In this document: positions 22,930-45,449 of the stretch, piece after piece
How positions within the stretch are numbered: position 1 is the stretch's first letter
Layout of the letters: each line of letters starts with the position of its first letter
Assembly (NCBI GenBank): GCA_963764165.1
Contig: CAVXRD010000001.1
Span: forward strand, 1,056,001-1,120,000
Origin: an uncultured Verrucomicrobiae bacterium
GTDB taxonomy: Bacteria; Verrucomicrobiota; Verrucomicrobiia; Limisphaerales; Palsa-1400
Direction of reading: 5' to 3'
Length of the DNA stretch: 64,000 nucleotides
Translations under genes and position numbers: made by a program
The notes under the pieces: model-generated
Told to the model about the DNA's origin: nothing
What the model saw: the letters and a program-made list of their open reading frames with translations, nothing else
The model's database searches: none

Positions 22930-23533
22930 ACTAATCGTTAAGCATTTTTCGGTAATCGTAAAGTTGGCTCATGCAGGAACTCACAAGCCACCGTGCTCCG
23001 GCGACTGAAATGAGACGGCAGCAAATCGCCAAATAATCGTCAGGTGTTTTTCCAGAACCGTCAGATGGCTCCTACCCATATCCCGCCGGGGAGGTGCGCA
23101 CGATGTTTTCAAACGGAAATAAGACTTTTATGGGACTTTTGAACCAGAACCCTGTGGGCGGAAGGAGACAATATTGGGACATTGCATCTTGGAGCATCAG
23201 GGGATTGGACGCGGAGGCATCCACATCCTTCGGCGGAATCGTTTCATAAAATTGACAATCGTGCCATCGGCCACCGGCCACCCCGATAATTCCGCACAAT
23301 GGAGTTGGGCCGGTGCCAGGAAAAGCCCGTCCCAAACCCGCCAAACAGGTGTGGTTTAATCGTCAACGTATTTTCCAGAATCGTCAACTTGTCCTCTAAA
23401 GAAAGGGCTTGCCCCGCTCAGGCGCGCAAGTCCCACCGATTCTAAATCGAACGGGAGAAATTGCCCGCAATCGTCAGATAATCGTCAGGTATTTTCCCAG
23501 AATCGTCAGATGGCTTCTGCCCATATCCCGCCA
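22922..23533 (+). repeat. Four clusters of helically phased AATCGT(CA) direct repeats
   Basis: Motif starts 22922/22933/22954, 23024/23035/23056, 23358/23379, 23469/23480/23501; ~65 bp near-identical repeat at 23024 and 23469. Confidence 0.85.
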
Positions 23534-27364: not shown

Positions 27365-27367
27365 CCT

Positions 27368-30300
27368 ATGCCCCTCGACTTCCAACGCGCCCGCCCCCTC
27401 CTGCAAAACGGGAATCTCAGCAAGTTGTTTGTCGAGGAACTCGGCTGGGAACCCTGTCGTCAAAAACTCACGCTCCGGGCCGGTGAAACTGATTACGCTT
27501 TTACTGCCATCGCCGAAAAACGCGGCTTCACCGCCTGGCTATGCGCCAACGCCGACGGTAAATTGCCAGACCACACCACGCGGTTGAAACTTGACCGCGC
27601 CCTGACTCAGACCAGCTTTGAACATCTCATCGTTTTTCCCACCCGCGACGGCACCCAGCAATCGTGGATGTGGGTGCGCCGCAAAACAGGCAAGCCGCTC
27701 GCCGCCCGCACCCATGAGTTCAATCGCACGCAGCCCGGCGACTCGCTGCTCCAGAAGCTCCAGCACCTCTATATTTCACTCGAAGACGAAGAACGGGGCG
27801 ATGTTCATACCCTCACTCTTTCCGCCGGAGCACAGGCCGCGTTCGACATCGAGCGCGTCACAAAAAAATTCTACAAGGACTTCGATGCGCACCGCATCGC
27901 GTTCCTTAAATTCATTGACGGCATCGGCGAAGTGGCCGACCGCGAATGGTATGCCTCCGTCATGCTGAATCGCCTGATGTTCGTCTATTTCATCCAGCGC
28001 AAGGGCTTCCTCGATGGCGACCACGATTACCTTCGCAACCGTTTGGACCGTTGCAAAAGGGAACAGGGCAAAGACCAGTTCTACACCTTCTACCGTTATT
28101 TCTTGCTCCGGTTGTTCCGTGAAGGCTTCGGCAAACGCCGCAAGGACCGCGCACCTGACCTTGAAAAACTCATCGGCAACATCCCGTATCTCAATGGTGG
28201 CTTGTTCGACGTGCATGAGCTTGAGAAGCCGGAACGCTACGGCAAGGTCATCCAGATTCCCGACAAAGCTTTCGAGCGCATCTTTAATTATTTTGATCAA
28301 TACCAATGGCACTTGGATGAGCGCCCGCTCCGCGACGACAACGAGATCAATCCCGATGTTCTTGGCTACATCTTCGAGAAATACATCAACCAGAAACAAA
28401 TGGGAGCCTATTACAGCAAGGAGGACATCACCGAATACATCAGCAAAAATACCGTACTGCCTTTCCTCTTTGACGCCGCCCGCGCCAAGTGCAAGGTGGC
28501 TTTTGAAAATCCCAACGGCCCAACCGTCTGGGATTTGTTGCGCGAAAATCCTGATCGCTTCATTTATCCCGCCGTGCGCCATGGTACCGATAAAAAACTT
28601 CCGCCGGAAATCGCCGCCGGACTCGATACCACCAAGCCAAACCTGATCGAACGCCGCAAAGTGTGGAATAGACCCGCGCCCAGCGACTACGCCTTGCCTA
28701 CCGAAATCTGGCGTGAAGTCGTCGCCCGCCGACAGCGTTACGGGGAAGTCAGGCAGAAACTCGCCACCGGCCAAGTCCTGGAAGTGAACGACTTCATCAC
28801 CCTGAATCTTGATCTCCGCCAGTTCGCGCAGGATGTCATCCAGAATTGCGAAGGCCCGGATTTACTCATGGCCCTGTGGCAGCCCATCACCACCATCACC
28901 GTCCTTGACCCTACTGGCGGATCAGGCGCGTTCATCTTTGCCGCCCTCAATATACTTGAACCCCTTTACGAAGCCTGTCTGGACCGCATGGAGGCGTTTC
29001 TGGCGGAGTGGGGTGAGAACGGCAAAAAGACCCATCCAAATTATCACAAAAAATTTACCGAAGTCCTCGCCCGCGTTGACGCGCACCCCAACCGGCGCTA
29101 CTTCGTCCTCAAATCCATCATCATCAATAATCTCTACGCCGTGGACATCATGGAAGAGGCGGTGGAAATCTGCAAACTGCGCCTGTTCCTCAAGCTCGCC
29201 GCTCAGGTCGAGCCGGACGTTGGACGCGATAACCTCGGCATCGAACCGCTCCCGGACATTGACTTCAACATCCGCGCCGGCAACACACTCGTCGGTTATG
29301 CCACGGCGCAGGAAGTGCGCAAGTGCCTCACCTCGGAGAAGACGTCCGGCCACGACCAAATGCGCCTTGGTGTGCTGGGGGAAAAAGACGCCTACGCCAC
29401 CTTCGAGGACAAACTACAGATCGCCGACGCGGCATATCGCAGCTTCCGTCAGCAGCAGACCGAACTCGGTGGCATCGTCACGGCCCAGGATAAAGCCGAC
29501 TTAAAAACCAAACTCAAGACACTCGAAGACGAATTAAACTGCTATCTGGCGCGCGAATATGGTGTCAAAGTGAGCGACAAGCCCGCTTACTCCAACTGGC
29601 TGAAGTCCCACCAGCCGTTCCACTGGTTCATCCAGTTCTACAGCATTATCGCTCGCGGCGGCTTCGATGTCACCATCGGCAACCCACCGTACGTCGAATA
29701 CGGCACGAAGTTACAAAGCCAGTACCAGGTCAGGAACTACGCAACGCTGTCATGCGGCAACCTCCACGCTTTTTGCGCCGAAAGGAGCCTCTCGTTGACC
29801 TCACCGTCTGGTTGCGTCGGCCTCATTGTTCCACTCCCGTCCATCAACACAGATCGAATGGCTGCGCTACAGTCGCTCGTGAAACCAAACACGGGGGCCA
29901 AGGGAAGAAGTCTCTGGGTGTCCGCTTTCGACGAGCGTCCAAGCAATCTATTCAGCGGCGTGGACCAAAGACTGGTCATCGAGATCTTCGGTGCGGAAGC
30001 GCAACCACCCACCCTCGCCACAACTGGGATAAATCGGTGGGCCTCCAAGACCCGCGACAATCTCTTCCCGACCATCGCCTACTCACTTCAAGACAACGAG
30101 TCCATAGGCCGAACACGTACCATCCTCAAACTCAAGAACGTAGCCATCGAAACCTCCCTTCTCAGGAAACTCTACTCAAATGACCCCATCGAACACTTCC
30201 GCTCCACGCTGCCCACCAAGAACCTAGTCGCATACCGCACAGCAGGTGGAAGATACTGGAAAGTCGCACTGGACACTCCCTTCGACTCTGAGGCTGTTAG

Positions 30301-30718
30301 CGGCAAGGTGGCATATCTACAGGGTATTTCTGGCAGACAAGCTGTTGCCCTAATCAGCAGCTCCACGTTCTGGTGGTACTACTCCTCCCACTTCGACATG
30401 TACAACCTCAAGGACTACATGATATTTGGTTTTCGATTCTCAAGCGCCTCCCAAAGCATCCTCGCCGACCTGGACAAGATTGCTGGGAAACTCGTGAAAT
30501 CCATCGAACATAACGCGGAGGTTCAAACAATGCAGTCGCAAACCCGCGGGGCCGTTGAGCAGAAGATATATAAAGCCGGTAAGTCCAAGCCCATAATCGA
30601 CGAAATCGACACAGTGCTTGCGGAGCACTATGGGTTCACAGAGGAGGAATTGGACTTCATCGTGAATTACGACATCAAATACCGCCTTGGCCGCGACACC
30701 GAAACCGAGGAGGAGTGA
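27368..30718 (+). CDS. Eco57I/type IIG-like amino-DNA methyltransferase with C-terminal target recognition domain
   Basis: PYLNGGLF, GAYYS, DPTGGSGAF (motif I), GNPPY (motif IV). Confidence 0.92.
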   Translation: MPLDFQRARPLLQNGNLSKLFVEELGWEPCRQKLTLRAGETDYAFTAIAEKRGFTAWLCANADGKLPDHTTRLKLDRALTQTSFEHLIVFPTRDGTQQSWMWVRRKTGKPLAARTHEFNRTQPGDSLLQKLQHLYISLEDEERGDVHTLTLSAGAQAAFDIERVTKKFYKDFDAHRIAFLKFIDGIGEVADREWYASVMLNRLMFVYFIQRKGFLDGDHDYLRNRLDRCKREQGKDQFYTFYRYFLLRLFREGFGKRRKDRAPDLEKLIGNIPYLNGGLFDVHELEKPERYGKVIQIPDKAFERIFNYFDQYQWHLDERPLRDDNEINPDVLGYIFEKYINQKQMGAYYSKEDITEYISKNTVLPFLFDAARAKCKVAFENPNGPTVWDLLRENPDRFIYPAVRHGTDKKLPPEIAAGLDTTKPNLIERRKVWNRPAPSDYALPTEIWREVVARRQRYGEVRQKLATGQVLEVNDFITLNLDLRQFAQDVIQNCEGPDLLMALWQPITTITVLDPTGGSGAFIFAALNILEPLYEACLDRMEAFLAEWGENGKKTHPNYHKKFTEVLARVDAHPNRRYFVLKSIIINNLYAVDIMEEAVEICKLRLFLKLAAQVEPDVGRDNLGIEPLPDIDFNIRAGNTLVGYATAQEVRKCLTSEKTSGHDQMRLGVLGEKDAYATFEDKLQIADAAYRSFRQQQTELGGIVTAQDKADLKTKLKTLEDELNCYLAREYGVKVSDKPAYSNWLKSHQPFHWFIQFYSIIARGGFDVTIGNPPYVEYGTKLQSQYQVRNYATLSCGNLHAFCAERSLSLTSPSGCVGLIVPLPSINTDRMAALQSLVKPNTGAKGRSLWVSAFDERPSNLFSGVDQRLVIEIFGAEAQPPTLATTGINRWASKTRDNLFPTIAYSLQDNESIGRTRTILKLKNVAIETSLLRKLYSNDPIEHFRSTLPTKNLVAYRTAGGRYWKVALDTPFDSEAVSGKVAYLQGISGRQAVALISSSTFWWYYSSHFDMYNLKDYMIFGFRFSSASQSILADLDKIAGKLVKSIEHNAEVQTMQSQTRGAVEQKIYKAGKSKPIIDEIDTVLAEHYGFTEEELDFIVNYDIKYRLGRDTETEEE

Positions 30719-31831: not shown

Positions 31832-32021
31832 CGTGGCTCCACACAACTTATGTATTTCACTGAAAGCCAACGCGTGGAAATCTTTGCGCGCAAATGAAAA
31901 TGGTCTCTGAATTAGCTTTGAGCGATAAACGGCGCACCTCCAAGGACGTCGATCTTAATTTCAAGTCACGGGAAATCCGCAATTGTGCAGTCCGCACTTG
32001 TGGCAACGAGTTTCTTTTCGT

Positions 32022-32444
32022 ATGAGCACCAGCCAAACTGTACCACCACCCATCAGTGCCGCCGCTTACGTGAGAACGGCCACGGAGAACCAAGACTCGG
32101 CAAGCAACCAAATGGACTCCATCAGAAAATATGCCGAGCGCCGGGGAATACAAATCGTCAAAGAGTATTCTGACGCAGGCAAGAGCGGTTTGAGTGCCAA
32201 GGGCCTCGAATCCCTGGCAGAGATGATTCGGGATGTTCAGAATGGACCAATCAATTTCTCAGCCATCCTTCTGTACGATGTCAGTCGGTGGGGCCGATTT
32301 CAAGATGCCGATGAAAGCGCCTATTATGAATTCATCTGCCGCCGAGCCGGGGTGTTGGTTCATTATTGCGCCGAGCAATTTGAAAGTGAGGCCATCCCTG
32401 TTTCCATGATTGTCAAATTACTCAGACTCTTTCCGCGTAAATGA
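32022..32444 (+). CDS. Truncated serine-recombinase paralog lacking the catalytic Ser
   Basis: YVRTATE versus YVRMSTE in the neighbour; catalytic domain only. Confidence 0.8.
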   Translation: MSTSQTVPPPISAAAYVRTATENQDSASNQMDSIRKYAERRGIQIVKEYSDAGKSGLSAKGLESLAEMIRDVQNGPINFSAILLYDVSRWGRFQDADESAYYEFICRRAGVLVHYCAEQFESEAIPVSMIVKLLRLFPRK

Positions 32445-32454
32445 AAACTTCTGC

Positions 32455-33999
32455 ATGAGCACTGGCCCATCAAACCTACCACCAAACAATGCCGCCGCTT
32501 ACGTGAGAATGTCCACGGAGCACCAGCAGTACTCAACCAGCAACCAGATGGACGTCATAACAGAGTACGCCAAACGCCGTGAAAAGCAGATCGTTAAGCA
32601 ATACTCGGACGAGGGCAAGAGCGGACTAAATATCCAAGGCCGCGAATCGCTGGCGCGGATGATTCAGGATGTTCAGGACGGGCAAATCAATTTTTCATCC
32701 ATCCTCGTGTACGATGTCAGCCGGTGGGGGCGATTTCAGGACGCGGACGAAAGCGCCTATTACGAATATATCTGCCGCCGTGCCGGGGTTTCGGTCCATT
32801 ATTGTGCCGAGCAATTTGAAAATGACGGCAGCCCGATGTCCTCGGTCATGAAAACCATGAAGCGGACGATGGCTGGTGAATACAGCCGCGAATTGTCATC
32901 CAAAGTTTTTCAAGGAGCCTGTCGGTTAATCCAAATGGGGTTCAAGCAGGGCGGCACTGCTGGATTCGGCCTTCGGCGCGTACTGGTTGATCAGAGCGGC
33001 CAGCAAAAAGCCGTGCTAAAAATGGGAGAGCATAAAAGCCTTCAAACTGACCGGGTGATCTTGATTCCAGGGCCGGAGGAGGAAATCAAAACTGTTCGGT
33101 GGATGTATTCGGCATTTGTTGAAGGAAAAAGCGAATCGGAAATTGCCAAGGTGCTGAACGCCCAGGGAGTGCTCACCGACTTTGGGCGCGCGTGGAACCG
33201 TTCCACCGTCCATCAGGTGCTCACCAACGAAAAATATATCGGCAACAATGTTTATCATCGCACGTCTTTCAAACTGAAACTCAAACACATTGTGAACCCG
33301 CAGGAAAAATGGATTCGTGGGGACGGCAAGTTTGAGGCCATTGTGGAACCCAGCCTTTTTCACACGGCCCAAGGCATCATCCTGGCTCGGAGCCGGAAAC
33401 TTTCGGATGATGAAATGCTGGAGAAATTGCGCGGCGTGCTCAACAAGCATGGTCGCATCTGCGGCATACTGATCGACGAGGCCGACGACCTTCCTTCCAG
33501 CACCGCGTTTCGTTCTCGTTTTGGAAGTTTGGTCTCAGCGTACCGGCTAATCGGCTACGACCCCGGCATTGATTATGATTTTGTCGAAATCAACCGCCGT
33601 CTCCGCCAAGAGCATCCCGTGTTGGTGGCGCGGGTGGTACGCCAAATTGAGGAACTCGGCGCCGTGGCACGATGGGACAAAGAACACCAGATTGTTCATT
33701 TGAATGAGGAACTCCGGGTTTCCATTGTCCTGTGCCGACACTGCACGACGCCTGGCGGGTCGTCGCGATGGCTGGTTCGACTGGATGACGGGTTAAAACC
33801 GGACATTACCGTCGCGGTGCGGATGGACGCAGCCAATGCCGGAATCCGCGACTATTACCTGCTGCCAGCAATTGATATGACTTGGGAAAACCTGCATGTT
33901 GGGGAGGAGAACGGCATTTACCTGGACGCGTATCGCTTTGACACGCTGGAATATCTCTTCGGGATGGCTCAACGCACAAAACTACAGGAGACCGCATGA
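32455..33999 (+). CDS. Large serine recombinase
   Basis: YVRMSTEHQ, DVSRWGR, LTNEKYIG recombinase domain. Confidence 0.93.
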   Translation: MSTGPSNLPPNNAAAYVRMSTEHQQYSTSNQMDVITEYAKRREKQIVKQYSDEGKSGLNIQGRESLARMIQDVQDGQINFSSILVYDVSRWGRFQDADESAYYEYICRRAGVSVHYCAEQFENDGSPMSSVMKTMKRTMAGEYSRELSSKVFQGACRLIQMGFKQGGTAGFGLRRVLVDQSGQQKAVLKMGEHKSLQTDRVILIPGPEEEIKTVRWMYSAFVEGKSESEIAKVLNAQGVLTDFGRAWNRSTVHQVLTNEKYIGNNVYHRTSFKLKLKHIVNPQEKWIRGDGKFEAIVEPSLFHTAQGIILARSRKLSDDEMLEKLRGVLNKHGRICGILIDEADDLPSSTAFRSRFGSLVSAYRLIGYDPGIDYDFVEINRRLRQEHPVLVARVVRQIEELGAVARWDKEHQIVHLNEELRVSIVLCRHCTTPGGSSRWLVRLDDGLKPDITVAVRMDAANAGIRDYYLLPAIDMTWENLHVGEENGIYLDAYRFDTLEYLFGMAQRTKLQETA

Positions 34000-34877
34000 A
34001 CGACGACGTACAAATGATTCCAATCGACCACATTCGCATTATCAATCCGAGACTTCGGAACAAAGCAAAATTTGAGCTGATTGTGGACAGCATTAAAACA
34101 CTTGGGCTGAAAAAGCCAATTCAGGTGAGCCGTCGTGCGGCGGACGAAGGAAGTGAGCCAGGTTATGATCTGGTCTGCGGGCAGGGAAGAATTGAGGCTT
34201 GCATGGCCTTGGGCTACAAAGAAATTCCGGCGATTGTAGTCGAGGTGAGCAAGGAAGAGCGGTTGCTGCGGAGTTTGGTGGAGAATGCGGCCCGGCGATT
34301 TCCCGTGCCGGCAGACTTGTTGCGCGAAATCGAGCGGTTGAAGGTCGCTGGCTATGGCAATGGCGATATTGGAAAAAAGTTGGGAATTTCTGAATCGTAT
34401 GTCAGCAATTTGATGACGCTGAAGCGGGCCGGAGAAGAGAGGCTTCTCACTGAAGCGCTCAATGGCAAAATTCCAATTTGGATTGCAATGGACATCGCGA
34501 AAACCGATGACGTGGAAATGCAGCGGGAAATGCTCAAGGGACTCGAAAGCAAAAAACTGAACCATATTTCCATTCGGGTGGTGAAGCGCATTATCGAGCA
34601 ACGACGTTTTCTCGGAAAAACACGGGTTCGAGATGATCGAGACAGCCACGCCAGCGCCGATAGCATGGTGAGCATTTACAGGCGCGAGTGTCAGCGCCAG
34701 AAGCTCCAGGTGCGGAAAGCGAAATTATGCGAGGAGAAGCTTCTGTTTTTGGTGAAGGCGTTCGACAAGCTGGTTGGGGACGAAAACTTTGTCAATTTGC
34801 TGAGGGCCGAAGCTTTGTTTACGATGCCAAAATACCTATGGACGAAAACGTCCCACAAACATGAGGAGGCCGCATGA
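33996..34877 (+). CDS. ParB/RepB-like protein 1
   Basis: SIKTLGLKKPI, LVCGQGRIEA, SLVENAARR; ATGA overlap. Confidence 0.87.
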   Translation: MNDDVQMIPIDHIRIINPRLRNKAKFELIVDSIKTLGLKKPIQVSRRAADEGSEPGYDLVCGQGRIEACMALGYKEIPAIVVEVSKEERLLRSLVENAARRFPVPADLLREIERLKVAGYGNGDIGKKLGISESYVSNLMTLKRAGEERLLTEALNGKIPIWIAMDIAKTDDVEMQREMLKGLESKKLNHISIRVVKRIIEQRRFLGKTRVRDDRDSHASADSMVSIYRRECQRQKLQVRKAKLCEEKLLFLVKAFDKLVGDENFVNLLRAEALFTMPKYLWTKTSHKHEEAA

Positions 34878-35749
34878 GTGCTGCCAAAGTGGCGTTCGAG
34901 ATGAAAACGATCAAAGTGTCGCTTGATCTGATTTTACCTCTACGCCGAATGAAAAATCCGCACAAAACGATCAGCCGGTACAAAAGGATTCTAACCTCTA
35001 TCAAAGAGGTGGGGCTGATCGAACCGCTGGCAATCCACCCGCAGCGGGATAAATCTGGCACCTACATGCTCCTCGACGGGCATCTTCGTCATAGCGCCTT
35101 AAAGGAGTTGGGTATGACAGAGGCGGACTGCATTATCGCAACCGATGACGAGAGTTTTACCTATAACGCCCGGGTCAGCCGGTTGCAGCCCATCCAAGAG
35201 CACAAAATGATTGTCAAAGCCGTGCAAAACGGGGTGAAGCCGGAGAGAATTGCTGCGGCCCTCGACATGCCGTTGAGCGCGGTGCGTGCATCCATGAATC
35301 TATTGGACGGCATTCATGCCGAAGCGTCCGACATGCTGAAGGACAAGCCGATCAGCCCCAAAGCACTTCGGTTTCTAAAAAAGGTGACAGGCGTTCGGCA
35401 AATTGAAATGGCCGAGTTAATGGTGAATGCGAACATATTCGCATCTGGATATGCCGAGGCGCTTTACTTGGGCACGTCGCGAGACCAACTGGTCGATTCT
35501 GAAACCCCGAAAGTCAAAGAGGGATTGTCACGGGAAGAAATCGCGCGCATGGAGCAGGAAATGGAGTCATTGGAAAAGGATTTCAAGGCAATCGACGAAG
35601 CATTTGGGGAGAACGTGCTGAATCTGACGGTGGTGAAGGGTTACACGAAAAAATTGTTGGAGAACGCGAAAGTGATCCGTTTTTTGAAGGCGAACTATCC
35701 TGAATTTCTGAGCGAATTTGAATGGATCGCGGCGGCGGAAACTTTGTGA
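34874..35749 (+). CDS. ParB/RepB-like protein 2
   Basis: SIKEVGLIEPL, LLDGHLR, DDESFTYN; ATGA overlap. Confidence 0.87.
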   Translation: MSAAKVAFEMKTIKVSLDLILPLRRMKNPHKTISRYKRILTSIKEVGLIEPLAIHPQRDKSGTYMLLDGHLRHSALKELGMTEADCIIATDDESFTYNARVSRLQPIQEHKMIVKAVQNGVKPERIAAALDMPLSAVRASMNLLDGIHAEASDMLKDKPISPKALRFLKKVTGVRQIEMAELMVNANIFASGYAEALYLGTSRDQLVDSETPKVKEGLSREEIARMEQEMESLEKDFKAIDEAFGENVLNLTVVKGYTKKLLENAKVIRFLKANYPEFLSEFEWIAAAETL

Positions 35750-36095: not shown

Positions 36096-37034
36096 TCATT
36101 TAGTAAATTTGAGGATTTGTGCAATTCGAGGCCAAAACCTTGGCACTCTGGGGACGGAGGCGTCCTTCACATCCCCTTTGGCCGCGATGGTCCCGCTTTC
36201 CACTGATCTGCTGTTGAAGTGCCTGATGTCAAAAAGCGCGTCGCCCGTTTCCTCAGGCGGATGATGCTGACAAACCTTGTTGCGAAATAAAGCCATCCGG
36301 TCGTTCGGGGTCAGCGTACCGCGATTCCCATCATAATCCAAATACACAAATTCACGATCATCCGTAAACCAAGGTGTCAGTAATTGCGTTATTAGTCCGA
36401 CGGCGGTTGATGCCAGAACCCCATTTGACCAAACTACTTGCGGTCGACTGCCCGCAGCGCCATATTTCTTTGCCTCTTGCGCCAACCGTTCATCCGTAAT
36501 CAAGCCTACACACCGCAAACATGGCTTGCCAGGCATTGAAAGAATGACCTGGCCGCCGATTAAATATTGCTCGCCGCCTAATTCGTGGACGTCCATCCCA
36601 ATGTCGATGTACGGTATTAGGTGCCTTCTGGCAAAGCGTTCCAGTTGTTCGCGTTCGATGAATGAATCCACTGCACCCGCAATAACATCGCACCTCGTTA
36701 GTTCGGAGACGGCGCTGTGCCAAGAGCCTCGAATGCTAATTATGCGTGGCTGTTCAACCAAGCCCGCGAGTTGCCGTTGCGCGATCGTAACTTTGGCTGT
36801 CGCGGGTCCGATGTCGGCCAAGGTTCCGCCTATGAGCCGATTGGTATTTGTGTCGGTGATATGGTCGGGGTCAATGTTGACATAACCGCCGATTCCAAGA
36901 TGGCCGCATTGCTGGACAATATGAGAGCCGCCGCCACCGAGGCCAATAAGGCCAACGGTGGAAGAATACAGCGTGGCCTCACTATCGGTTCCGAGAAAGC
37001 TTTGCCGCTCAAATCGACTCACCTGGTTTGCCAT
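36096..37034 (-). CDS. ThiF/E1-like adenylating enzyme (BilD position)
   Basis: RFERQ, GLGGGGS, DPDHITDTNTNR, PCLRC. Confidence 0.92.
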   Translation of the reverse strand: MANQVSRFERQSFLGTDSEATLYSSTVGLIGLGGGGSHIVQQCGHLGIGGYVNIDPDHITDTNTNRLIGGTLADIGPATAKVTIAQRQLAGLVEQPRIISIRGSWHSAVSELTRCDVIAGAVDSFIEREQLERFARRHLIPYIDIGMDVHELGGEQYLIGGQVILSMPGKPCLRCVGLITDERLAQEAKKYGAAGSRPQVVWSNGVLASTAVGLITQLLTPWFTDDREFVYLDYDGNRGTLTPNDRMALFRNKVCQHHPPEETGDALFDIRHFNSRSVESGTIAAKGDVKDASVPRVPRFWPRIAQILKFTK

Positions 37035-37519
37035 CCTTTCAACGGCGTGCCCACTTCAACAAATTCGTTGATGATCCTGCCCGGTTGATCTGCGCCCAAC
37101 CAAATGTGACCTCGCGCATGGGTGTGGCTTAAAACCAGCGCACCGTGGGGAAAGCGCGGTGCAACCTGAAAAAAGTTTGGCACAAATTTGGCCTGCTCAC
37201 GAAGGTCAACTTTGCTGAATCCAGGATGTCCCTGCCCGCAGTGCGTATGAACATGGAATATGGAAACACCAGACATTGCCCATTGTAGAGCCTTGCGAAT
37301 TGCCTCCGGCCCCATCATCGCCCCTACGGAATTGTCTCGAAGGTAATCGTCGTCAGCGACAGGACGATAAGCGCGAGCATATACAGACAAGTCACCAACC
37401 GTAGCCGACACCCCGCAGGCAATGAAACCGACCCGCTCATAGGCGAACGGGTGCTGACGCGCCAAGTCCTGTCGAACGGACTTCAAGAGTTGGCGGGTGA
37501 TTTTAAACCGGATTTTCAT
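37019..37519 (-). CDS. JAB/MPN+ peptidase (BilC position)
   Basis: ERVGF...HVHTH...FSKVD JAMM motif; ATGA overlap with the upstream gene places the start at 37519. Confidence 0.87.
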   Translation of the reverse strand: MKIRFKITRQLLKSVRQDLARQHPFAYERVGFIACGVSATVGDLSVYARAYRPVADDDYLRDNSVGAMMGPEAIRKALQWAMSGVSIFHVHTHCGQGHPGFSKVDLREQAKFVPNFFQVAPRFPHGALVLSHTHARGHIWLGADQPGRIINEFVEVGTPLKGWQTR

Positions 37520-37851
37520 GATACCGCTCGGAGATGCGCACCCAACATACTGGTCCAAGGCTGCTCGGCCACGACGTTGTTCCACGATGGCGCCCACCAA
37601 CTACGGCCCAGCACCGTATGGTCTTTCCAGCCAGTGCTCTGCCCGATACCCTCCAGCTTTTGTTCGAAAAAAAGTCGGGTTGTGTATCCGCTATGGATTG
37701 AGGGGTGCAATAGAAGCGCCATCGTTATTGTCTTGCCTCCTGCCCGAAATTTGAAATTCGGCAGCAGCACGATAGGCACACTGTTTTCAGCATGAAGAGC
37801 CGCATCGGCATGCAATGCCTGCATAGCGGCAAATTCGACCTTGGCATCCAT
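37516..37851 (-). CDS. Small prokaryotic E2-like protein without any Cys (BilB position)
   Basis: LLLHP...GYTTRLFF...W...GRSWWAPSW pattern; position between Ubl and JAB. Confidence 0.65.
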   Translation of the reverse strand: MDAKVEFAAMQALHADAALHAENSVPIVLLPNFKFRAGGKTITMALLLHPSIHSGYTTRLFFEQKLEGIGQSTGWKDHTVLGRSWWAPSWNNVVAEQPWTSMLGAHLRAVS

Positions 37852-38528
37852 TAGGAAGAGCCTCCGCCGTTCACCTGGCTATAGAAGTGCATACCACATT
37901 CGATGCGAATGTTTTCATGGGGTTTTAATGTAACAAGCTCGCCATCGGGGGTTTTCAAGTTCAGCAAATACCCCGGCTCAATAGGAAATTTGGACATGAG
38001 TTGTTCGGTGGTATAGACCCCGGGTGCAAGCTCATAGGCAACGTCCTTAAAAAACACTTTTACGAAACGCTTTTCGGTTCTCAAATGCTCCGTCCCCGGC
38101 TCTGCAAAATTGACCTCGTCATCCGGACCCAAAACCTGGTCTGGTCGATCCTTGCGTTCCAGAACCAACAATTCATCCGGCTTCACATGCGCAATCATCC
38201 GCAGCATCGGCTCTTTTATTTTGGAGGAGCCCCAATCAAATCCGCGTTCGTCCACCGTGAACCGGTAGACCCGGTCAGACCTGAATGCCCAAAACACCTC
38301 AACGCCGGGATTGCGAAGATCCACCGTCTGATCCAGGCCGACTGCGACCGTTCCGTGCGCCAGAACCTGAATAAGAACGCAATCATCTGCCGGGCGAAAA
38401 TCCGCTTTGTCCAGCATTTGACGGGCTGTTGGCACGGGGTCCTTGAATTCAAATTTTCGTTCATTTATGGTAGCCGGGAAATGCCCGGCTTTATCGGCAT
38501 GGGGGTCATTTTCAGTTGCGGTGTGCAT
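37851..38528 (-). CDS. Multi-ubiquitin-domain protein, three beta-grasp repeats, C-terminus GGGSS (BilA position)
   Basis: Three ~70 aa repeats (VDLRNPGVEVF, VNFAEPGTEHL, IRIECGMHFYS) and a terminal Gly motif. Confidence 0.9.
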   Translation of the reverse strand: MHTATENDPHADKAGHFPATINERKFEFKDPVPTARQMLDKADFRPADDCVLIQVLAHGTVAVGLDQTVDLRNPGVEVFWAFRSDRVYRFTVDERGFDWGSSKIKEPMLRMIAHVKPDELLVLERKDRPDQVLGPDDEVNFAEPGTEHLRTEKRFVKVFFKDVAYELAPGVYTTEQLMSKFPIEPGYLLNLKTPDGELVTLKPHENIRIECGMHFYSQVNGGGSS

Positions 38529-38577: not shown

Positions 38578-38683
38578 ACCCTAACCTACAGGGTTTGCAA
38601 TGTCAAGGCACACACGCACTTTCGTGCGTGTGTGCCGCACATTGCGTGTGAGGTTGACATGGGCGGTGTCACCCTGTATCAAT
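38578..38683. promoter_or_regulatory. Divergent sigma70-type promoters flanking a 13-bp perfect inverted repeat
   Basis: Minus strand TTGACA-N17-TAGGGT; plus strand TTGACA-N17-TATCAA; GGCACACACGCAC-tttc-GTGCGTGTGTGCC at 38607-38636; ACCCTGTA present in both promoters. Confidence 0.75.
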
Positions 38684-38688
38684 AGACA

Positions 38689-39000
38689 GTGATTCCAGAC
38701 CCGATTTACAAATTCATTGGCGCGAAAATTCAGGCCCGGCGCAAAAAACTCAATCTCAAGCAGGAGAATCTGGCGCGAATGCTAGGTATATCAAGAGGAT
38801 CACTCGCAAACATAGAAACAGGCCGACAGAGCATTCTTGTCCACCAGCTTTTCAAGTTTGCGGTACAGCTTCAATTATCGCCATTCGATTTGTTGCCAGA
38901 ACAGTCACAGGATGACGTGGGGGGTGAGGCCACAGAACTGCCACTGCCCGCCGACTTAAAGGGGCAGCAAAAAAAGCAGGTTACCAAAATGTTTTCTTAA
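38689..39000 (+). CDS. XRE-family HTH regulator (CapH-like)
   Basis: IQARRKKLNLKQENLARMLGISRGSLANIETGRQ. Confidence 0.9.
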   Translation: MIPDPIYKFIGAKIQARRKKLNLKQENLARMLGISRGSLANIETGRQSILVHQLFKFAVQLQLSPFDLLPEQSQDDVGGEATELPLPADLKGQQKKQVTKMFS

Positions 39001-39040
39001 AATATCAAAAACCCAAAAAAAGTAAAACAAGGAGGAAATA

Positions 39041-39574
39041 ATGTCAAAAATCGCAAAGATTGATCCTTATGCTCGCGCACGACAAGTGCTCGACAAACAA
39101 TCGATAAAATCGTTTCCAGTTCCGGTCGAAAGAATTGCCAAGGCCTTGGGCGCGCAGATTCGGTTTGCCCCTCTGGATGATGAACTCTCAGGAATGGTTT
39201 ATGTGAAAGACGGTGTGCCAATCATCGGCGTCAACTCGCTCCATCATCCAAACCGACAAAGATTCACCATCGCTCATGAAATCGGTCATATGGAACTTCA
39301 TTTGGAAATGATCACCAGTTCCGTCCATGTAGACAAAAAGTTTATCGGCCTTATGCGGGATTCAAATTCTTCAACTGGCAACGAGGAGATTGAAATTCAG
39401 GCCAACCAATTCGCAGCAGAACTATTAATGCCCCAAAAACTCATTGAGGAAGAGTTGGAAGGAAAGCAATTTGACATTGATGACGACGGCCCAATTGAAG
39501 AACTTGCCAAAAAATTCCGCGTCAGCAAGCAGGCTTTACTTTATAGAATAGGAAATCGCAGTCAAAAGGACTAG
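39041..39574 (+). CDS. ImmA/IrrE-family Zn metallopeptidase (CapP-like)
   Basis: RQRFTIAHEIGH and EIQANQFAAELLMP. Confidence 0.93.
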   Translation: MSKIAKIDPYARARQVLDKQSIKSFPVPVERIAKALGAQIRFAPLDDELSGMVYVKDGVPIIGVNSLHHPNRQRFTIAHEIGHMELHLEMITSSVHVDKKFIGLMRDSNSSTGNEEIEIQANQFAAELLMPQKLIEEELEGKQFDIDDDGPIEELAKKFRVSKQALLYRIGNRSQKD

Positions 39575-39586
39575 GCCCAGATCACC

Positions 39587-40993
39587 ATGAGTCTCATCTT
39601 TTATGATACTGAGACAACGGGAACTGAAACCTTTTTTGATCAAATTTTACAGTTTGCCGCGGTACGAACCGACGCCGATTTCAATGAACTCGATCGCATC
39701 GACATTCGATGTCGGCTTTTGCCTCATGTAGTGCCTGCGCCGGGCGCAATTACGGTAAACAAACTTAAAGTTTCGCAGCTAATCGACCCTTCTTTCCCAT
39801 CACATTACGAAATGGTTCGTGCCGTTCGCGCGAAATTACTCTCGTGGTCACCTGCGTTGTTTGTGGGCTGGAATTCCATAAAATTCGATGAAGCGCTGGT
39901 TCGCCAAGCGCTCTATAAAACATTGCACAATCCCTATTTGACAAATGCAGGTGGAAACACTCGCTCCGATGTGATGCGTATCGTTCAGGCCTGTAGCATT
40001 TATGCACCTGATGCCCTTGCATTTCCGAAGGACAGTAACGGGCAACTGCAGTTTAAGCTGGAAACGGTTGCGGCTGCGAACGGTTTTTCGATTAAAAATG
40101 CTCACGATGCGATGGGGGATGTGGAGGCAACCATCTATCTGTCCAAACTGCTGGCAGAAAGGGCCGCCCGGATTTGGTCGTGCTTTATGCGGTTCAGTAC
40201 AAAAGCAGCGGTGGTTGATTACATAAGCAACGAGCGAATATTTTGTTTAAGCGACGTTTACTTTGGGAGACCGTATTCGTACTTGGTTACAACAATTGGT
40301 CAGAACCAGGCTAACACTGCCGAATGGTATGTTTATAATTTAGAGGTTAATCCCGAATCCTTGATGTCGCTTTCGAAACAGCAGTTAATGGTTCGCCTCG
40401 ACCAGTCAAAAAAGCCAATCCGTAAACTGAAATCAAATGCGGCTCCAATGCTGTTTTCATCCGACGAAGCCCCGGAAACCTGCGCTGGAATTGAACACGG
40501 TCCGGACGAACTGGAACGTCGCTGCGTATTTCTGGAAAGCAACACTAAACTGCGTGATCGGATCGTGGCCGCCTTTGAAGCAATTCAAAAAACATATGCG
40601 CCATCAAACCACGTTGAAAAACAAATATATGACGGATTCCCGCAAGAGGCTGACGAAAAACTGATGACGGAATTTCACGACGTTCCGTGGGCGCAACGAA
40701 CTGAAATCGTGGAAAGATTCTTGGATTCGCGCCTGAGGAAGATTGGAAGGCATCTGATCCACACTGAACGACCTGACCTTTTGGAAAAACACATTCGTCG
40801 GGATCACGATTTGGCGACCGCAAAAAGATTACTTGGACACGGCGAAGAAATTGCTTGGGTGACCTTGCCGGAAGCTCTTAACGAAATCGAACAATTGGTA
40901 AAGAGTGCCAAAGGAGCGGCGTCAATATTCTTTCAGGAACATGAGCAATATCTAAGGAAGCGGCATGAACAAGCCCTCATTCATGTAAAATAG
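39587..40993 (+). CDS. Exonuclease I (SbcB)-like 3'-5' ssDNA exonuclease
   Basis: FYDTETTG, GWNSIKFDE, FKLE...ANG, AHDAMGDV, EKQIYDGF. Confidence 0.88.
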   Translation: MSLIFYDTETTGTETFFDQILQFAAVRTDADFNELDRIDIRCRLLPHVVPAPGAITVNKLKVSQLIDPSFPSHYEMVRAVRAKLLSWSPALFVGWNSIKFDEALVRQALYKTLHNPYLTNAGGNTRSDVMRIVQACSIYAPDALAFPKDSNGQLQFKLETVAAANGFSIKNAHDAMGDVEATIYLSKLLAERAARIWSCFMRFSTKAAVVDYISNERIFCLSDVYFGRPYSYLVTTIGQNQANTAEWYVYNLEVNPESLMSLSKQQLMVRLDQSKKPIRKLKSNAAPMLFSSDEAPETCAGIEHGPDELERRCVFLESNTKLRDRIVAAFEAIQKTYAPSNHVEKQIYDGFPQEADEKLMTEFHDVPWAQRTEIVERFLDSRLRKIGRHLIHTERPDLLEKHIRRDHDLATAKRLLGHGEEIAWVTLPEALNEIEQLVKSAKGAASIFFQEHEQYLRKRHEQALIHVK

Positions 40994-41077: not shown

Positions 41078-41449
41078 TCAGTCAAATAATGAAGCCTGCG
41101 GCGACCGTTTCCTGTCCAGAAGGCTTTCTGGCGTCACATCCACTTCATAAAGCCCAAGCTGCCCTTTCACGGGAAACGGTTCAATGGCTCTTATATTTTG
41201 AAGCACCCATGCGAAAGCGTTGGGGTAAATAGAACACTGGGCCGCAACCTCGTCCGCCTTTGTCATCACCCGGCAATCAACAAGGTTTGCAACTGCAACA
41301 GCACATCCGGCAGGCTCAATGTTTGGGACCTTGGAAGATACCAAGAGAACCTGGCCCCGGTATAGCGTCGCCCATTCCCGCGTTTCAATAGTTTTTTTGC
41401 CTGATGCAATCAGGTTGGCCCATGGCTGTTTTATGGAAATTGCCTTCAT
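41078..41449 (-). CDS. ASCH domain protein
   Basis: SIKQPWANLIASGKKTIETR and PVKGQLGLY. Confidence 0.92.
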   Translation of the reverse strand: MKAISIKQPWANLIASGKKTIETREWATLYRGQVLLVSSKVPNIEPAGCAVAVANLVDCRVMTKADEVAAQCSIYPNAFAWVLQNIRAIEPFPVKGQLGLYEVDVTPESLLDRKRSPQASLFD

Positions 41450-41459
41450 CGGTTACGAC

Positions 41460-42836
41460 TTAAATTCCCAGCAGTCGCTTTGACTCGGCGGAAGCCATGA
41501 CGCCAAGATTTTTCAAAAAATCATTCGACCAGCGAAGAAGCATGTCTCCCCACGGCGCGTGCGTCGTGATTTTTTTGTCTCCGAATCTTTCGGCAGTGGC
41601 GACCGGAAAAAATCCGTGCGAGAGCACAATGATTTCCCGACTCAACGGAGAACAGGTTGTAACCTTGCGGGCGAATGAAACTAGAGCGCGAAAATCCATT
41701 TGTTTCGTTGTGTCAACGGAACCGAGATTTTCAAACAGTTTGAACCCATAATCATTAGCTGAATCAAGCCCCGCCTCTTTCATGGCGATTCGCCGATAGA
41801 TGCACGGGACGCAATAACCACAGTGGCGGACGCCTAAATTTTTATACCTGCTGGGTCTTGCGCAGGAAACGGACCGGCGCATTGCTTGTGCCAGTTTTGG
41901 ATCAAGACTGCGGAGCATGTCTGTTTTGCTTTCAAACAGAAACGGGTTTTTGATGTTTCCTTTGAAGATTCCCGTTGAATGCAAAAAGTCGGCAAGCTCC
42001 ATCAGATATTTTGGATGTGCGGTGCGGGTGCTGAGTGTTCCAAGGCGGTTTTTCCCAAGCGGAGGATTGAGTGCAATCAGTCCGTTCTCTGGTATGTAAA
42101 CCGTGTCGATCTTTGCATCATTGGCCAGTGCTATTGCGAGGCTAAGAAATAAAAGTGAGCGCGGGCGGTGCGTTTCCTCGCATTTGTCAGGAAGGTTATA
42201 GCGGTGATCGGCTGTAAATGCCCGCGCTGCGCGACATTGAATTAGCTTCAACTGCTTTGGGAACATTGTTCTCAGCACCTCCGCAAGTTCAGTCTGCGCC
42301 GAAGCCGCCGTGCCATCGGCCTGATGACCGCACAACAAAAGTTTTTTCCCCTGCGACAGCAACTTGTGTGCGCCGAGGAATGAATCTATTCCCCCGGAGA
42401 ACAGACAGACAGCGTCAAAACCAACGGGCAGATGCAAACGATGGGTTCCGAATCCGTCCAATGCAGGCCGGTCGCACCAGGTAAAACGATATTTGTCACC
42501 GGCCAGTGTTTCGAGCATCTGGCTGAGGGGGGCTTGATTTGCCGTCCACAGCTTGGGATTCTTTACCGGAAACAGAATGTCGAATTCACGGGTCCAGTCA
42601 TCGCCTCTTTCTTCGATCTCATCGACAATGTAAACCAGCGTGGCAAGGTCCAGAAAGTCCCGTGTCAGCGGTTCGTGGGAAATTTCCAATGGATGCGAAT
42701 CCATCTCCAAACGTAGCGTAACATTTGCGCCGCCGGGCACAGAATTGACGATGGTGTAGCCAGAATCCGCTGCCAGGCTTTCGAGGTAAATCGTGGGCAG
42801 CTTGTCTCCTTTGCCTACATAACGCACGGCCTTCAT
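41460..42836 (-). CDS. qatC: QueC-like protein QatC
   Basis: CLFSGGIDS, PENGLIALNPPL, STRTAHP, HCGYCVPCIYRR. Confidence 0.92.
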   Translation of the reverse strand: MKAVRYVGKGDKLPTIYLESLAADSGYTIVNSVPGGANVTLRLEMDSHPLEISHEPLTRDFLDLATLVYIVDEIEERGDDWTREFDILFPVKNPKLWTANQAPLSQMLETLAGDKYRFTWCDRPALDGFGTHRLHLPVGFDAVCLFSGGIDSFLGAHKLLSQGKKLLLCGHQADGTAASAQTELAEVLRTMFPKQLKLIQCRAARAFTADHRYNLPDKCEETHRPRSLLFLSLAIALANDAKIDTVYIPENGLIALNPPLGKNRLGTLSTRTAHPKYLMELADFLHSTGIFKGNIKNPFLFESKTDMLRSLDPKLAQAMRRSVSCARPSRYKNLGVRHCGYCVPCIYRRIAMKEAGLDSANDYGFKLFENLGSVDTTKQMDFRALVSFARKVTTCSPLSREIIVLSHGFFPVATAERFGDKKITTHAPWGDMLLRWSNDFLKNLGVMASAESKRLLGI

Positions 42837-42849
42837 GTCAAATCCCTTG

Positions 42850-43659
42850 TCACAATGCTTTCAGCCTTCCTTCAAGTTCCGACACCAATTCGTTTCCAAG
42901 TTTTATACCGCCTTGTCCGAACCAGTCGGTTTTGTCAAAACGCCCCGATGCTTTGCTTTCCTTGATTAAGGATTCCACATGTGACCGGCAGGATTGTCCG
43001 ACGGCAATTCCCAATCCCTCCGCACCAGCACCTTCGGCCTTAAATTCCGCATGGCTTTGAACGGCATTCCAGACACGGTCAAAGACATAATTTGTCAGGA
43101 AGGACTGCACGAGTCCTTCGACGCCGTTTTGATCGAAAAATGCTTGCAGCGCTGTTTCCAAATCGTTGTATTGACCACCATCTTCAAGGGCAGCCACTTC
43201 AATTAAGGTGTCTTTCAAGGCGTCACACAAAATATCGCGCTGAAGGGGATCATCGTTTTCGGCAAGATGCTCTGCAATTTTGGCGATAACTTCAGCGGCT
43301 GGTTTGCCTTTTAGGTCGCCTAGGCCAAGCGAACCAAGCGCTTCGTCCAATCCGCCATGTTGAAATGCACCACCGAATCCACCCAAGCGAGAGGTTACCC
43401 CTCCAATTGATGCACTTCGTCCGCGACCACCGCCGCCACCGCCGCCACCGCCGCCGCCAGCACCACCACCACCACCGCCACCGCCACCGGATCGTGCAGC
43501 TTGCGAAGGCAATCCCAAACCACCCAGGGCGCGGACGGTTCCGCCGACTATTCCTGCGGGGGTAGCCTTGGCACCACCATTGAGGTTAAGCGTGATTTCC
43601 TTTTTGACCGGCGTCCATTGCCCGCCGCTTGGCGTTGGTTTTCCTTTTGATGTTCCCAT
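42850..43659 (-). CDS. qatB: QatB
   Basis: MGTS N-terminus, poly-Gly linker, GLDEALGSLGL; lies between qatA and qatC. Confidence 0.85.
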   Translation of the reverse strand: MGTSKGKPTPSGGQWTPVKKEITLNLNGGAKATPAGIVGGTVRALGGLGLPSQAARSGGGGGGGGGAGGGGGGGGGGGRGRSASIGGVTSRLGGFGGAFQHGGLDEALGSLGLGDLKGKPAAEVIAKIAEHLAENDDPLQRDILCDALKDTLIEVAALEDGGQYNDLETALQAFFDQNGVEGLVQSFLTNYVFDRVWNAVQSHAEFKAEGAGAEGLGIAVGQSCRSHVESLIKESKASGRFDKTDWFGQGGIKLGNELVSELEGRLKAL

Positions 43660-45449
43660 TATGGGTTGCCTCCCCGGCGCGAGTTTTTACTGGGCCTGCT
43701 GAGCGCATCCGCAATTGTTGAAGCCTTTTTGAACTTGGCCGTGACCGTATCTGGAACATCCGCACCCGCGTCTTTTGCCTTTTGCAAAAGAGTTAGCGCC
43801 GCCAACGCTACAGCGGTTTTACTGCCGTCCAGTTCGCCAACAGGTTTTACCATTGTTTTGAATAGCTCCTTGTGGGTTGCCCCAATTTGAGACAAGCCGC
43901 CTAGAATATTAGCGATGGCAGTTGCGTCCGCTGCCGATGGCAGGTCTACCAAAAGCTGGCGCACAACGGCTGATGCCAAAGCGGGTTCCTGCGCGGCGGC
44001 CCGCTTTGAAGCTGAACGGGACATCAGTGAATCAGTTCCTTCGATGGCGCGGACAAGCTGTTTGGTTTTTTCATCCACTGACACGATGCCAACCGGCTGT
44101 CCATGGCTGAGCGAAGTTTGGGCAAGGAAAAGATAAGGCGTGAGGTTGGTGTTTCCGTCCAGTCGCGGTTCCGCGAGCATGAAACCGCAAAGCCCCGGTT
44201 CTCCCAGGAATGAGTTCAAAGTGGGTGATTGCTCCGTCACCGTTTTGCCATCGCCGGTCTGAACAATCTGAGCGAGCAATTCGCTGGTCCCTGTCGCCGG
44301 GTCGATGGTTTCAGCAAGAATGCTGAAAAATTCGGCCCAAACATATTCCAGCACGGCAAATTTCACCAAGAGTTCAGGCTTAACATTGGGAAGCATGTTG
44401 GCTTCGACCAGTTGTTGGCGCAGCGAAAGAATATTCAGGAAGCGTTTAATCTGGCGCGGGTTGCCCCGCAGTCCCCGCGCAAGCGTGTCAACAAACGGGA
44501 GGACGCCTGTGAGTTCCTTATCAATCGCATCCTGTGTGGTCGAAAGCACCATTCTATTTTCAGAAACCCATTTTGAGAATACCCCGGCAAGGTCGCCTAC
44601 ATGGGAATAAAACCCGGAGCGGGCATCGCTTAATTTTGACCACGCACTTTCGTTCAGGTGCCTGCCGATTATCAGCATTCCGACGTAACAGCCAATATCG
44701 CGCACGTCCTGCGCGGGAATGCTGAACGGTATCTGGACGATCTTTTCCAGATAATCCTTTTGCCGCCTCAAATCATTGCCGACTTTGTAAACCTCGCCGA
44801 CGGCGTGCTGAATCTTTTCCGCGTCCGCGCCGATCACGAAGGTGCAGGCGGGCGTATTCAGGAAAAGTTTAATGGTCTCGAATGTTTCGATGACCTTGGC
44901 GCTCGAACACCGGTCAAGGTCGTCGATGAAAACGACGATCCGGTCAATTCCGACAAGCTTGAGCAATTGTTTGAAATCGCCTTCAAACGATTCCATGGTA
45001 TCGGTCACTTTGTCCGATTCCTCTTTGAAGCAGTTGGCGAATTCCTCGACATTGGGCGTCATGGTGATGGCGCTTTTCATGAGAAATTTGCCAAGCTTCA
45101 AGACGCTCGCGCCTTTTTTCAGTTTGTCGATAAGCTGCTTGGCCTCGCCAGCAAGCGTCACGTCCCTTTGAAGATTGGAGAGGATGGCGTGAATGAGGGC
45201 GCTTTGCGCTTCCTCCCGGCCTTCATACATCCAGGCATTGAACCACAGTGTGCTGCGCTTTTTCTCAGCCTTGGTAGCCTCGATGGTCATCATCATCATC
45301 TGCATCAGGCTCGTTTTCCCGCTGCCCCACGGACCAAATATGCCAAGCGTCAGCGGTGCCAGGTCTTTATGGGTGCAAATGTTGGCAAGCACCGACACAT
45401 AAGTGCTGTAGCCGAGGCAGTCTTGGCGTGTTTCACGGTCTGACCACAT
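43659..45449 (-). CDS. qatA: KAP-family P-loop NTPase QatA
   Basis: MWSDRET, GPWGSGKTS, FIDDLDRC, YLEKIVQIPF, GNPRQIKRFLN. Confidence 0.92.
   Translation of the reverse strand: MWSDRETRQDCLGYSTYVSVLANICTHKDLAPLTLGIFGPWGSGKTSLMQMMMMTIEATKAEKKRSTLWFNAWMYEGREEAQSALIHAILSNLQRDVTLAGEAKQLIDKLKKGASVLKLGKFLMKSAITMTPNVEEFANCFKEESDKVTDTMESFEGDFKQLLKLVGIDRIVVFIDDLDRCSSAKVIETFETIKLFLNTPACTFVIGADAEKIQHAVGEVYKVGNDLRRQKDYLEKIVQIPFSIPAQDVRDIGCYVGMLIIGRHLNESAWSKLSDARSGFYSHVGDLAGVFSKWVSENRMVLSTTQDAIDKELTGVLPFVDTLARGLRGNPRQIKRFLNILSLRQQLVEANMLPNVKPELLVKFAVLEYVWAEFFSILAETIDPATGTSELLAQIVQTGDGKTVTEQSPTLNSFLGEPGLCGFMLAEPRLDGNTNLTPYLFLAQTSLSHGQPVGIVSVDEKTKQLVRAIEGTDSLMSRSASKRAAAQEPALASAVVRQLLVDLPSAADATAIANILGGLSQIGATHKELFKTMVKPVGELDGSKTAVALAALTLLQKAKDAGADVPDTVTAKFKKASTIADALSRPSKNSRRGGNP

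Follow-up and report, generated by a model that had tools for sequence, protein, structure and literature searches.

The present analysis deals with a three-gene cassette on a 64,000-nucleotide (nt) stretch of DNA from an uncultured Verrucomicrobiae bacterium (contig CAVXRD010000001.1, positions 1,056,001 to 1,120,000), hereafter called the window; all coordinates are positions in the window, of which the first letter is position 1. The genes of an XRE-family helix-turn-helix (HTH) protein, of an M78 zinc peptidase of the ImmA/IrrE/CapP type and of a full-length exonuclease I-like protein (ExoI) follow each other with gaps of 40 and 12 nt, and an operon for ubiquitin-like (Ubl) conjugation starts at position 38528 on the minus strand, 160 nt from the HTH gene (Table 1). 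The open reading frames (ORFs) agree with a preliminary description of this DNA, which had reported the same tandem and the same gaps divergent from the Ubl operon, and they also bear out its comparison with CapH and CapP, i.e. a pair of HTH and M78 genes located upstream of an immune operon in opposite orientation, with a common promoter region. The trio is a real, conserved, CapH/CapP-like variant with ExoI as the added gene.

The region between the two transcription units contains back-to-back -35 elements, and inverted-repeat half-sites lie between them, namely a 13-bp palindrome at 38607-38636 and a second pair at 38636-38648. Of 76 relatives, all have TTGACA (with at most one mismatch) 33-40 nt upstream of the HTH start, compared to a mean of 11.4 and a maximum of 21 in shuffled sequences, and 62 also have the opposing TGTCAA, again with inverted half-sites in between. 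As the HTH start lies 35 nt past TTGACA, the mRNA is likely leaderless. A generic promoter scan missed the HTH promoter and returned nothing above shuffles. This anatomy is likely that of an autoregulated repressor with a divergent target, where we infer that the HTH protein binds. The HTH protein matches PADLOC capH weakly (E 2.4e-5) and in the HTH part only (residues 6-75), its C-terminal part is weakly conserved across 78 relatives, and CapH was absent among its PDB matches. Two metatranscriptome runs yielded few 150-nt contigs over the region, which is neutral either way.

Table 1. Features of the cassette, of the divergent operon and of the surrounding island (positions in the window; aa, amino acids).
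Feature	Position	Strand	Remarks
XRE-family HTH protein	38689..39000	+	103 aa, GTG start; Pfam HTH_3 44.5 bits; predicted CapH-like repressor and peptidase substrate
M78 (ImmA/IrrE/CapP-type) zinc peptidase, GAF-less	39041..39574	+	177 aa; Pfam Peptidase_M78 100 bits
Exonuclease I-like DEDDh protein, full-length, accessory clade	39587..40993	+	468 aa; RNase_T and Exonuc_X-T_C
Back-to-back -35 elements, likely repressor operator	38601..38659		TGTCAA 38601-38606 faces the Ubl operon; TTGACA 38654-38659 faces the HTH gene
Multi-ubiquitin (Ubl3-type) protein, ends GGGSS	37851..38528	-	Pfam Multi_ubiq; PDB BilA/BubA Ubl3 matches, E 1e-14
Putative E2-like protein	37516..37851	-	111 aa, no Cys, conserved Ser89; label from gene position and analogy
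Putative JAB peptidase	37019..37600	-	HVHTH motif; true start probably near 37519
ThiF/E1 protein	36096..37034	-	Pfam ThiF; conserved Tyr191; best PDB match BubCD, E 3e-11
Tyrosine integrase	14493		island gene
TrwC relaxase	16637-19561		island gene
PLD-SNF2 helicase and type IIG restriction-modification gene	23882-30718		island genes
Serine recombinase and two ParB/RepB genes	32410-35749		island genes

The arrangement of HTH, peptidase and ExoI genes occurs well beyond chance. Starting from ExoI, we collected the 80 top-scoring loci out of 381 from genomes and the 80 top-scoring out of at least 431 from metagenomes, a sample that for this reason leans to close relatives. Clustered at 90% identity, these loci gave 108 groups with 1100 nt or more of upstream DNA; a peptidase gene lies directly upstream of ExoI in 78 of them, and both the HTH and the peptidase gene are present in 76. 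The peptidase was found in 20/21 groups with an ExoI identity of at least 55%, in 18/18 at 50-55%, in 26/38 at 45-50% and in 14/31 below 45%. According to the record titles, many of which are labels of metagenome-assembled genomes, linked loci occur in Pseudomonadota, Verrucomicrobiota, Acidobacteriota, Planctomycetota, Bacteroidota, Nitrospinota and others. On plasmids, the seven best of 15 peptidase matches (49-55% identity) all adjoin an ExoI match, three of them being near-copies of one plasmid; the next five inspected (34-44% identity) are without ExoI. The reverse sample started from the peptidase in 1203 genomes of three alphaproteobacterial families, in which 35 genomes gave 36 loci, not dereplicated against the ExoI-first loci. 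At a cut of 200 bits, placed at a visible score gap, ExoI lies within 1.5 kb in 23 of the 24 loci above it (20 of 21 without the three seed genomes) and in none of the 12 below. In the fetched DNA of 80 viral loci with distant M78 peptidases no ExoI was found; one partial ExoI relative and two weak matches were detected on viral contigs. The preliminary description had suggested searching for the neighbourhood in other genomes, and by both counts (76/108 ExoI loci, 20/21 close peptidases) it is conserved. The trio is a conserved and portable controller cassette.

Within one clade, peptidase and ExoI show a strong tendency to occur as a pair, and either of the two has been lost in places. In 72 of 85 loci the genes are spaced by -10 to +35 nt. 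At two loci (L144, L145) ExoI is convergent on the peptidase, and at a third (L078) it lies at 9432 with the HTH-peptidase pair 3.9 kb downstream and a Thoeris operon in between; in all three the helix predicted to contact the peptidase (see below) is kept. Hence, co-transcription is not always required. Two peptidases with the conserved His loop (L277, L260) come from genomes in which no ExoI was found. One might expect an orphan ExoI with the contact helix to be served by a peptidase from another locus of its genome, but this was mostly not borne out, as it applied to only 1 of 15 genomes. The ExoI phylogeny (101 rows) is a midpoint-rooted FastTree tree, from which we claim no order of events.

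The peptidase carries the motif HEIGH at residues 79-83, and H79, E80, H83 and E118 are present in 68 of 68 relatives. It matches PADLOC capP with 126 bits (profile positions 7-150 of 242), and residues 7-177 of its model align with residues 6-184 of the 278 of CapP (7T5T; Z 16.2, root-mean-square deviation 3.1, 151 aligned residues). However, the protein ends after the HTH subdomain and has no GAF domain, which had been overlooked before; the 81 linked peptidases are 171-192 aa long (five shorter, cut or broken ones excluded). In CapP, single-stranded DNA (ssDNA) is held between the peptidase and GAF domains via R90, K195, W196, Y264 and W280 (PMC13228613), and PprI without GAF loses ssDNA binding as well as ssDNA stimulation (PMC10904395). 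The premise of CapP-like ssDNA sensing in the preliminary description is therefore not borne out as worded, since CapP and PprI need the GAF domain that is absent here, and the peptidase probably cannot sense ssDNA alone. For the same reason we did not file it as a CapP despite its presumably CapH/CapP-like mode of action. R72, which corresponds to the ssDNA-binding R90 of CapP, occurs in 68/68 and is the sole equivalent left of the five CapP contacts. Furthermore, H96 and D98 are found in 68 of 68 peptidases of this clade. H96 aligns without gaps with C113 of CapP, 17 residues after the first His of HExxH, so that His replaces the Cys of the switch that occurs in 33% of CapPs. Judging from this alignment, a histidine lock in place of the cysteine is likely. 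The loop 95-113 has a predicted local distance difference test (pLDDT) value below 50 in the model, and 14 long viral M78 proteins have a Cys at the same offset as H96.

The ExoI model matches E. coli ExoI (SbcB) over the whole length (TM 0.84, 22% identity), and the identity between the two proteins amounts to 22-27%. D7, E9, D101, H173 and D178 align with the DEDDh residues of the E. coli enzyme, and 70 of 74 linked ExoIs as well as all 26 unlinked ones retain this catalytic set (DEDHD). The full-length SbcB-like exonuclease of the preliminary description is thus complete in fold and intact in its nuclease residues. A dead nuclease serving as sensor was rejected on these counts, and two of the four exceptions are split ORFs that miss the first residues. 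The identification of this ExoI as the housekeeping sbcB of the host was also rejected: the score with the NCBIfam equivalog PRK11779 is 204 bits compared to a cut-off of 260, and the gene was not found in 100 relatives. E. coli R148, which we take to be the anchor of the tail of the ssDNA-binding protein (SSB), aligns to A140 of the cassette ExoI. The best PADLOC match is RTasSbcB with 378 bits; no reverse transcriptase was present among 27 island proteins scanned, which are part of the island ORFs. Two unlinked ExoIs (L129:8618-9889 and L143:3-1364) adjoin a reverse transcriptase and a DRT1a-like gene, which fits this label. As a further side observation, one subclade repeatedly has a CARF-AAA-HTH sigma-54 activator (RtcR/PspF-like) close to ExoI on its upstream side (L069, L074, L144).

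Complex prediction supports binding between peptidase and ExoI. The pair scored 0.62, the best of three controls 0.16, with a partner pLDDT of at least 75 and runs that agree in 100% of contacts. Of the solved pairs 116 of 157 attain the score mark for complexes, and of the mismatched pairs 2 of 215; these counts hold only roughly here because our own alignments were used in the prediction. The PDB sequence matches listed included no ExoI-M78 complex that the prediction could have remembered. The predicted surface comprises residues 1, 3, 30, 91, 123, 125 and helix 194-215 of ExoI, and residues 26, 39-47, 64-73 and 160 of the peptidase, beside R72 and the HTH subdomain. To judge from residue numbers, this peptidase surface would be on the side where ssDNA lies in CapP. 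We compared 39 divergent linked with 26 unlinked ExoIs, all absent from the folding alignment: the mean difference is 0.32 at the interface vs 0.09 overall, which 0 of 20000 random draws reach, and the most differential 15-residue window is 198-212 (0.44; best elsewhere 0.20). For the peptidase, the corresponding values are 0.45 vs 0.29 (p ~0.001; 25 linked vs 24 unlinked short M78s). The point of these contrasts is that linked and unlinked proteins differ where the contact surface is predicted.

Moreover, two peptidase-ExoI fusion proteins (P0121, P0122) exist, which are 83% identical and have a common junction. They join the C-terminus of the peptidase to the N-terminus of ExoI, in match with an ExoI N-terminus that lies within the predicted interface. 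No further fusions were found among 556 and 7997 candidates, and none in the best 150 cluster representatives; P0128 was checked and is not a fusion, and an apparent triple HTH-peptidase-ExoI fusion (L006) is a frameshift artefact of assembly, with the middle of the peptidase out of frame and the adjacent E1 and Ubl genes also split. P44 of the peptidase was rejected as a clean marker of the partnership: it is Ala in both ExoI-less His-loop peptidases, but also in one linked peptidase (L246), and Pro is found in 4 of 24 unlinked ones. The correlation of paired peptidase and ExoI distances (r 0.80) was not counted, because it is expected from co-inheritance. Altogether, we consider a physical partnership of peptidase and ExoI in some form, as co-sensor or as guard, to be probable.

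The operon opposite to the cassette varies. Among 69 linked loci with enough DNA, 22 have Ubl, E2/JAB and E1 genes like the window, 12 a Type I Bil and 9 a Bub operon with DUF6527, and the remaining ones comprise 9 with other ThiF genes, 2 with cyclic oligonucleotide-based antiphage signalling systems (CBASS), 2 with DUF3892 and 13 unassigned. The divergent operon is thus Ubl-type in 52 of 69 loci, and several more belong to other defence types; a scan of 25 of 26 genes picked from the 13 unassigned loci gave two cases of CBASS, one of Gabija and two of Thoeris-type TIR genes. Since at least six operon types occur while ExoI stays, ExoI moves along with the controller and not with the operon opposite to it. 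At four loci (L063, L065, L247, L248) a PD-(D/E)XK nuclease gene follows the E1 gene of the controlled Ubl operon, and a UvrD helicase gene is present in three of the four.

In the window, the multi-ubiquitin gene is likely the first gene of the divergent operon under repressor control. The operon consists of four separate ORFs as in Bil, of which Ubl and E1 are confirmed, and the PADLOC Bil models do not match. The E2-like candidate has no Pfam, PADLOC or PDB match; the JAB candidate has no direct profile or PDB match, and a relative in equivalent position matches Prok-JAB. Among the operon proteins, neither the fused BubAB, BubCD or BubBD nor DUF6527 of Bub operons was found. Ser89 of the E2 candidate is present in 16 of 17 and Tyr191 of E1 in 17 of 18 relatives, and both resemble Bub chemistry. 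The operon at 36096-38528 possibly combines Bub-type oxyester chemistry with a Bil-type layout. The biological role of Bub is described as still open (PMC11601596).

The G+C content of the cassette is 46% compared to ~57% for the genome. It lies on an island of ~33 kb (14350-47276), which extends from tRNA-Pro (14350-14426) to a 45-nt copy of the 5' part of the tRNA near 47.25 kb and contains an integrase, a TrwC relaxase, a type IIG restriction-modification gene and QatABC. A second ExoI was not found elsewhere in the host genome, ExoI was not found in the 100 relatives of the host searched, and the peptidase was not found in a sample of 400 genomes of the phylum. Because of the low G+C content, the tRNA island and these two absences among relatives and within the phylum, we regard the trio as accessory DNA. 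Some further observations concern the island itself. Homologues of QatA, QatB and QatC at 41078-45449 (minus strand) are followed by an ASCH-domain gene at the position expected for QatD, which is a TatD nuclease. Non-coding island DNA at 22932-23532 carries four 30-nt repeat copies (70-80% alike), two of them inside 64-nt duplicates, which are possibly iterons or protein-binding sites. A truncated resolvase ORF (31983-32444) duplicates the start of the adjacent full serine recombinase (32410-33999) with 78% identity over 300 nt.

We favour the reading that ExoI is a peptidase-bound co-sensor, which supplies the ssDNA input in trans and also consumes the signal; in our judgement this proposition is evenly balanced between right and wrong. 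The HTH protein would repress the divergent defence operon, and the GAF-less peptidase would cleave the HTH protein by analogy with CapH and CapP. His96 may be the fourth zinc ligand that keeps the peptidase shut like Cys113 in CapP, as the ungapped alignment suggests. The predicted docking site of ExoI on the peptidase (residues 39-47, 64-73 and 160) adjoins R72, and once ExoI holds ssDNA whose 3' end is free, this DNA would open the His loop. With its nuclease intact, ExoI would degrade the signal as well, so that the switch would have a threshold and respond with a pulse that limits itself. The reset or feedback role that the preliminary description had assigned to ExoI survives as such a secondary role and as a rival explanation; a pure reset does not predict an interface, yet an interface is predicted and selectively conserved. 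More tentatively, a split damage sensor may have arisen, in which a CapP-type protease lost its GAF domain, swapped the Cys for a His lock and recruited ExoI as the subunit that senses ssDNA 3' ends, a possibility towards which we remain slightly sceptical.

Several points weigh against the co-sensor. GAF-less peptidases without ExoI stand in the identical layout beside Bub, CBASS and Ubl operons, so the short peptidase evidently can work without this partner, and the H-V-D motif is also found in ExoI-unlinked peptidases. Conversely, 26 of the 101 rows of the ExoI tree are unlinked to a peptidase, and 14 of 15 genomes with an unlinked ExoI are without the peptidase (incomplete genomes included). 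Common descent confounds the contrasts between linked and unlinked proteins, as the label changes only 9 times on the tree. Nine unlinked ExoIs that branch within groups of linked ones have retained most of the helix motif (mean 5.4 of 7 vs 6.6), F200 and F203 are among the most differential ExoI residues and are not listed contacts, and both the helix motif and the 200-bit cut were chosen after the data had been seen. Both fusions are single-contig proteins with unchecked DNA. The sign of the ExoI effect on the peptidase is a hypothesis, and cleavage is assumed from CapH and CapP. Furthermore, ImmA offers activators of another kind, i.e. RecA or RapI (PMC11841131).

With the opposite sign, ExoI would act as guard or brake, which holds the peptidase off or keeps local ssDNA below a threshold, until phage proteins that inhibit, titrate or displace ExoI (e.g. 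SSB-like ones) free the peptidase. Such a guard draws on the same predicted interface and co-conservation as the co-sensor, agrees with RTasSbcB as the best PADLOC match of ExoI and has a precedent in the host SbcB that sets the activation threshold of DRT10, opposed by a phage SSB-like protein (10.64898/2026.04.29.721553). Nevertheless, we find it improbable, because a pure inhibitor would make the His-loop peptidases of the two genomes without a found ExoI constitutive, and because the peptidase already has a candidate built-in lock in H96. The Ala (A140) in place of E. coli R148 also speaks against it. A model along the lines of the preliminary description, in which the peptidase is activated independently, either by ssDNA via its own basic residues or by RecA filaments as ImmA, and ExoI only removes ssDNA without functional contact, is in our opinion unlikely as well. 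It is in line with the catalytic residues kept in 70 of 74 linked ExoIs, with the short gaps that suggest a single transcript, with the invariant R72 and with the existence of ExoI-less short peptidases, and a private nuclease could be useful given that searches of the host genome and of 100 relatives revealed no further ExoI. However, it explains neither the complex prediction nor the fusions nor why helix 198-212 of ExoI is selectively conserved, is weakened by the three loci with ExoI outside the regulator transcript, and meets the difficulty that GAF-less PprI does not bind ssDNA (PMC10904395). Finally, ExoI might work on its own as the product of a damage-induced effector or repair gene, which degrades phage or plasmid ssDNA and merely uses the promoter of the regulator; this would suit its complete ExoI fold and the stand-alone clade members in varied settings, including those beside Thoeris, a reverse transcriptase and DRT1a, but is very unlikely, as linkage tracks the peptidase clade (23/24 above vs 0/12 below 200 bits) and not the regulated operon, and the interface evidence has no place in it.

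The co-sensor can be placed among several known systems. CapH and CapP (10.1101/2022.04.27.489752, PMC13228613) share the XRE HTH and M78 genes placed upstream of CBASS, Bil and Bub-type operons in opposite orientation, and CapP resembles the cassette peptidase in the peptidase and HTH fold, the R90 equivalent and the candidate zinc ligand at the switch position, whereas the cassette lacks the GAF domain, has no counterpart for four of the five tested CapP ssDNA contacts (PMC13228613) and carries His for Cys. Only the cassette has ExoI as a third gene with a predicted interface. ImmA is likewise short and GAF-less. Together with ImmR of ICEBs1 it provides the nearest logic for a trans-acting activator, i.e. 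a small peptidase that needs another protein, through the RecA-dependent response or RapI (PMC11841131); they govern excision of the element, whereas the proposed activator of the cassette is a cassette-encoded nuclease. Control of excision or transfer genes in the ImmA/ImmR manner was not seen, as the divergent operons are predominantly Ubl-type and otherwise include further defence types. IrrE/PprI with DdrO of Deinococcus is similar in an M78 protein with HTH subdomain (29% identity by structure) and an XRE repressor cleaved upon ssDNA, but PprI needs GAF for ssDNA, runs a chromosomal repair regulon and is not known to have a partner nuclease (PMC10904395). E. coli SbcB in DRT10 shares the ExoI fold, DEDDh and the role of an ssDNA exonuclease that sets an immune threshold (10.64898/2026.04.29.721553), whereas the cassette ExoI scores below the NCBIfam equivalog cut-off, is sporadic and island-borne, and is predicted to act by contact with a protease. 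CapW/BrxR (WYL) and CapK/CapS (kinase/STAS) are alternative ssDNA-responsive regulators beside the same operon families, but are unrelated proteins with the sensor within the regulator (PMC13373217).

The preliminary description knew of no account of the trio, and we found none in the literature searched, where several Bil papers, preprint supplements and subscription journals were outside the scope. The word exonuclease is absent from the text of Lau 2022 and from the text and 12 of 14 supplements of the CapK paper; nuclease is absent from the text of Ye 2024, and exonuclease and SbcB are absent from both its supplements.

The induction of phage-defence operons is under active study, and three described regulator families carry their own ssDNA sensor. 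The input of the GAF-less short peptidases beside the same operons has so far been unexplained, and the cassette offers a concrete answer with a nuclease as co-sensor, including candidate residues for the contact (ExoI helix 198-212, peptidase 42-44 and 66-71), for the lock (His96) and for catalysis. The co-sensor would explain both a threshold and a shut-off and would give a native inducing condition for Bil/Bub-type operons. If the split sensor were true, a single active nuclease would recognise as well as remove the signal by which exchangeable defence operons are turned on across many phyla.

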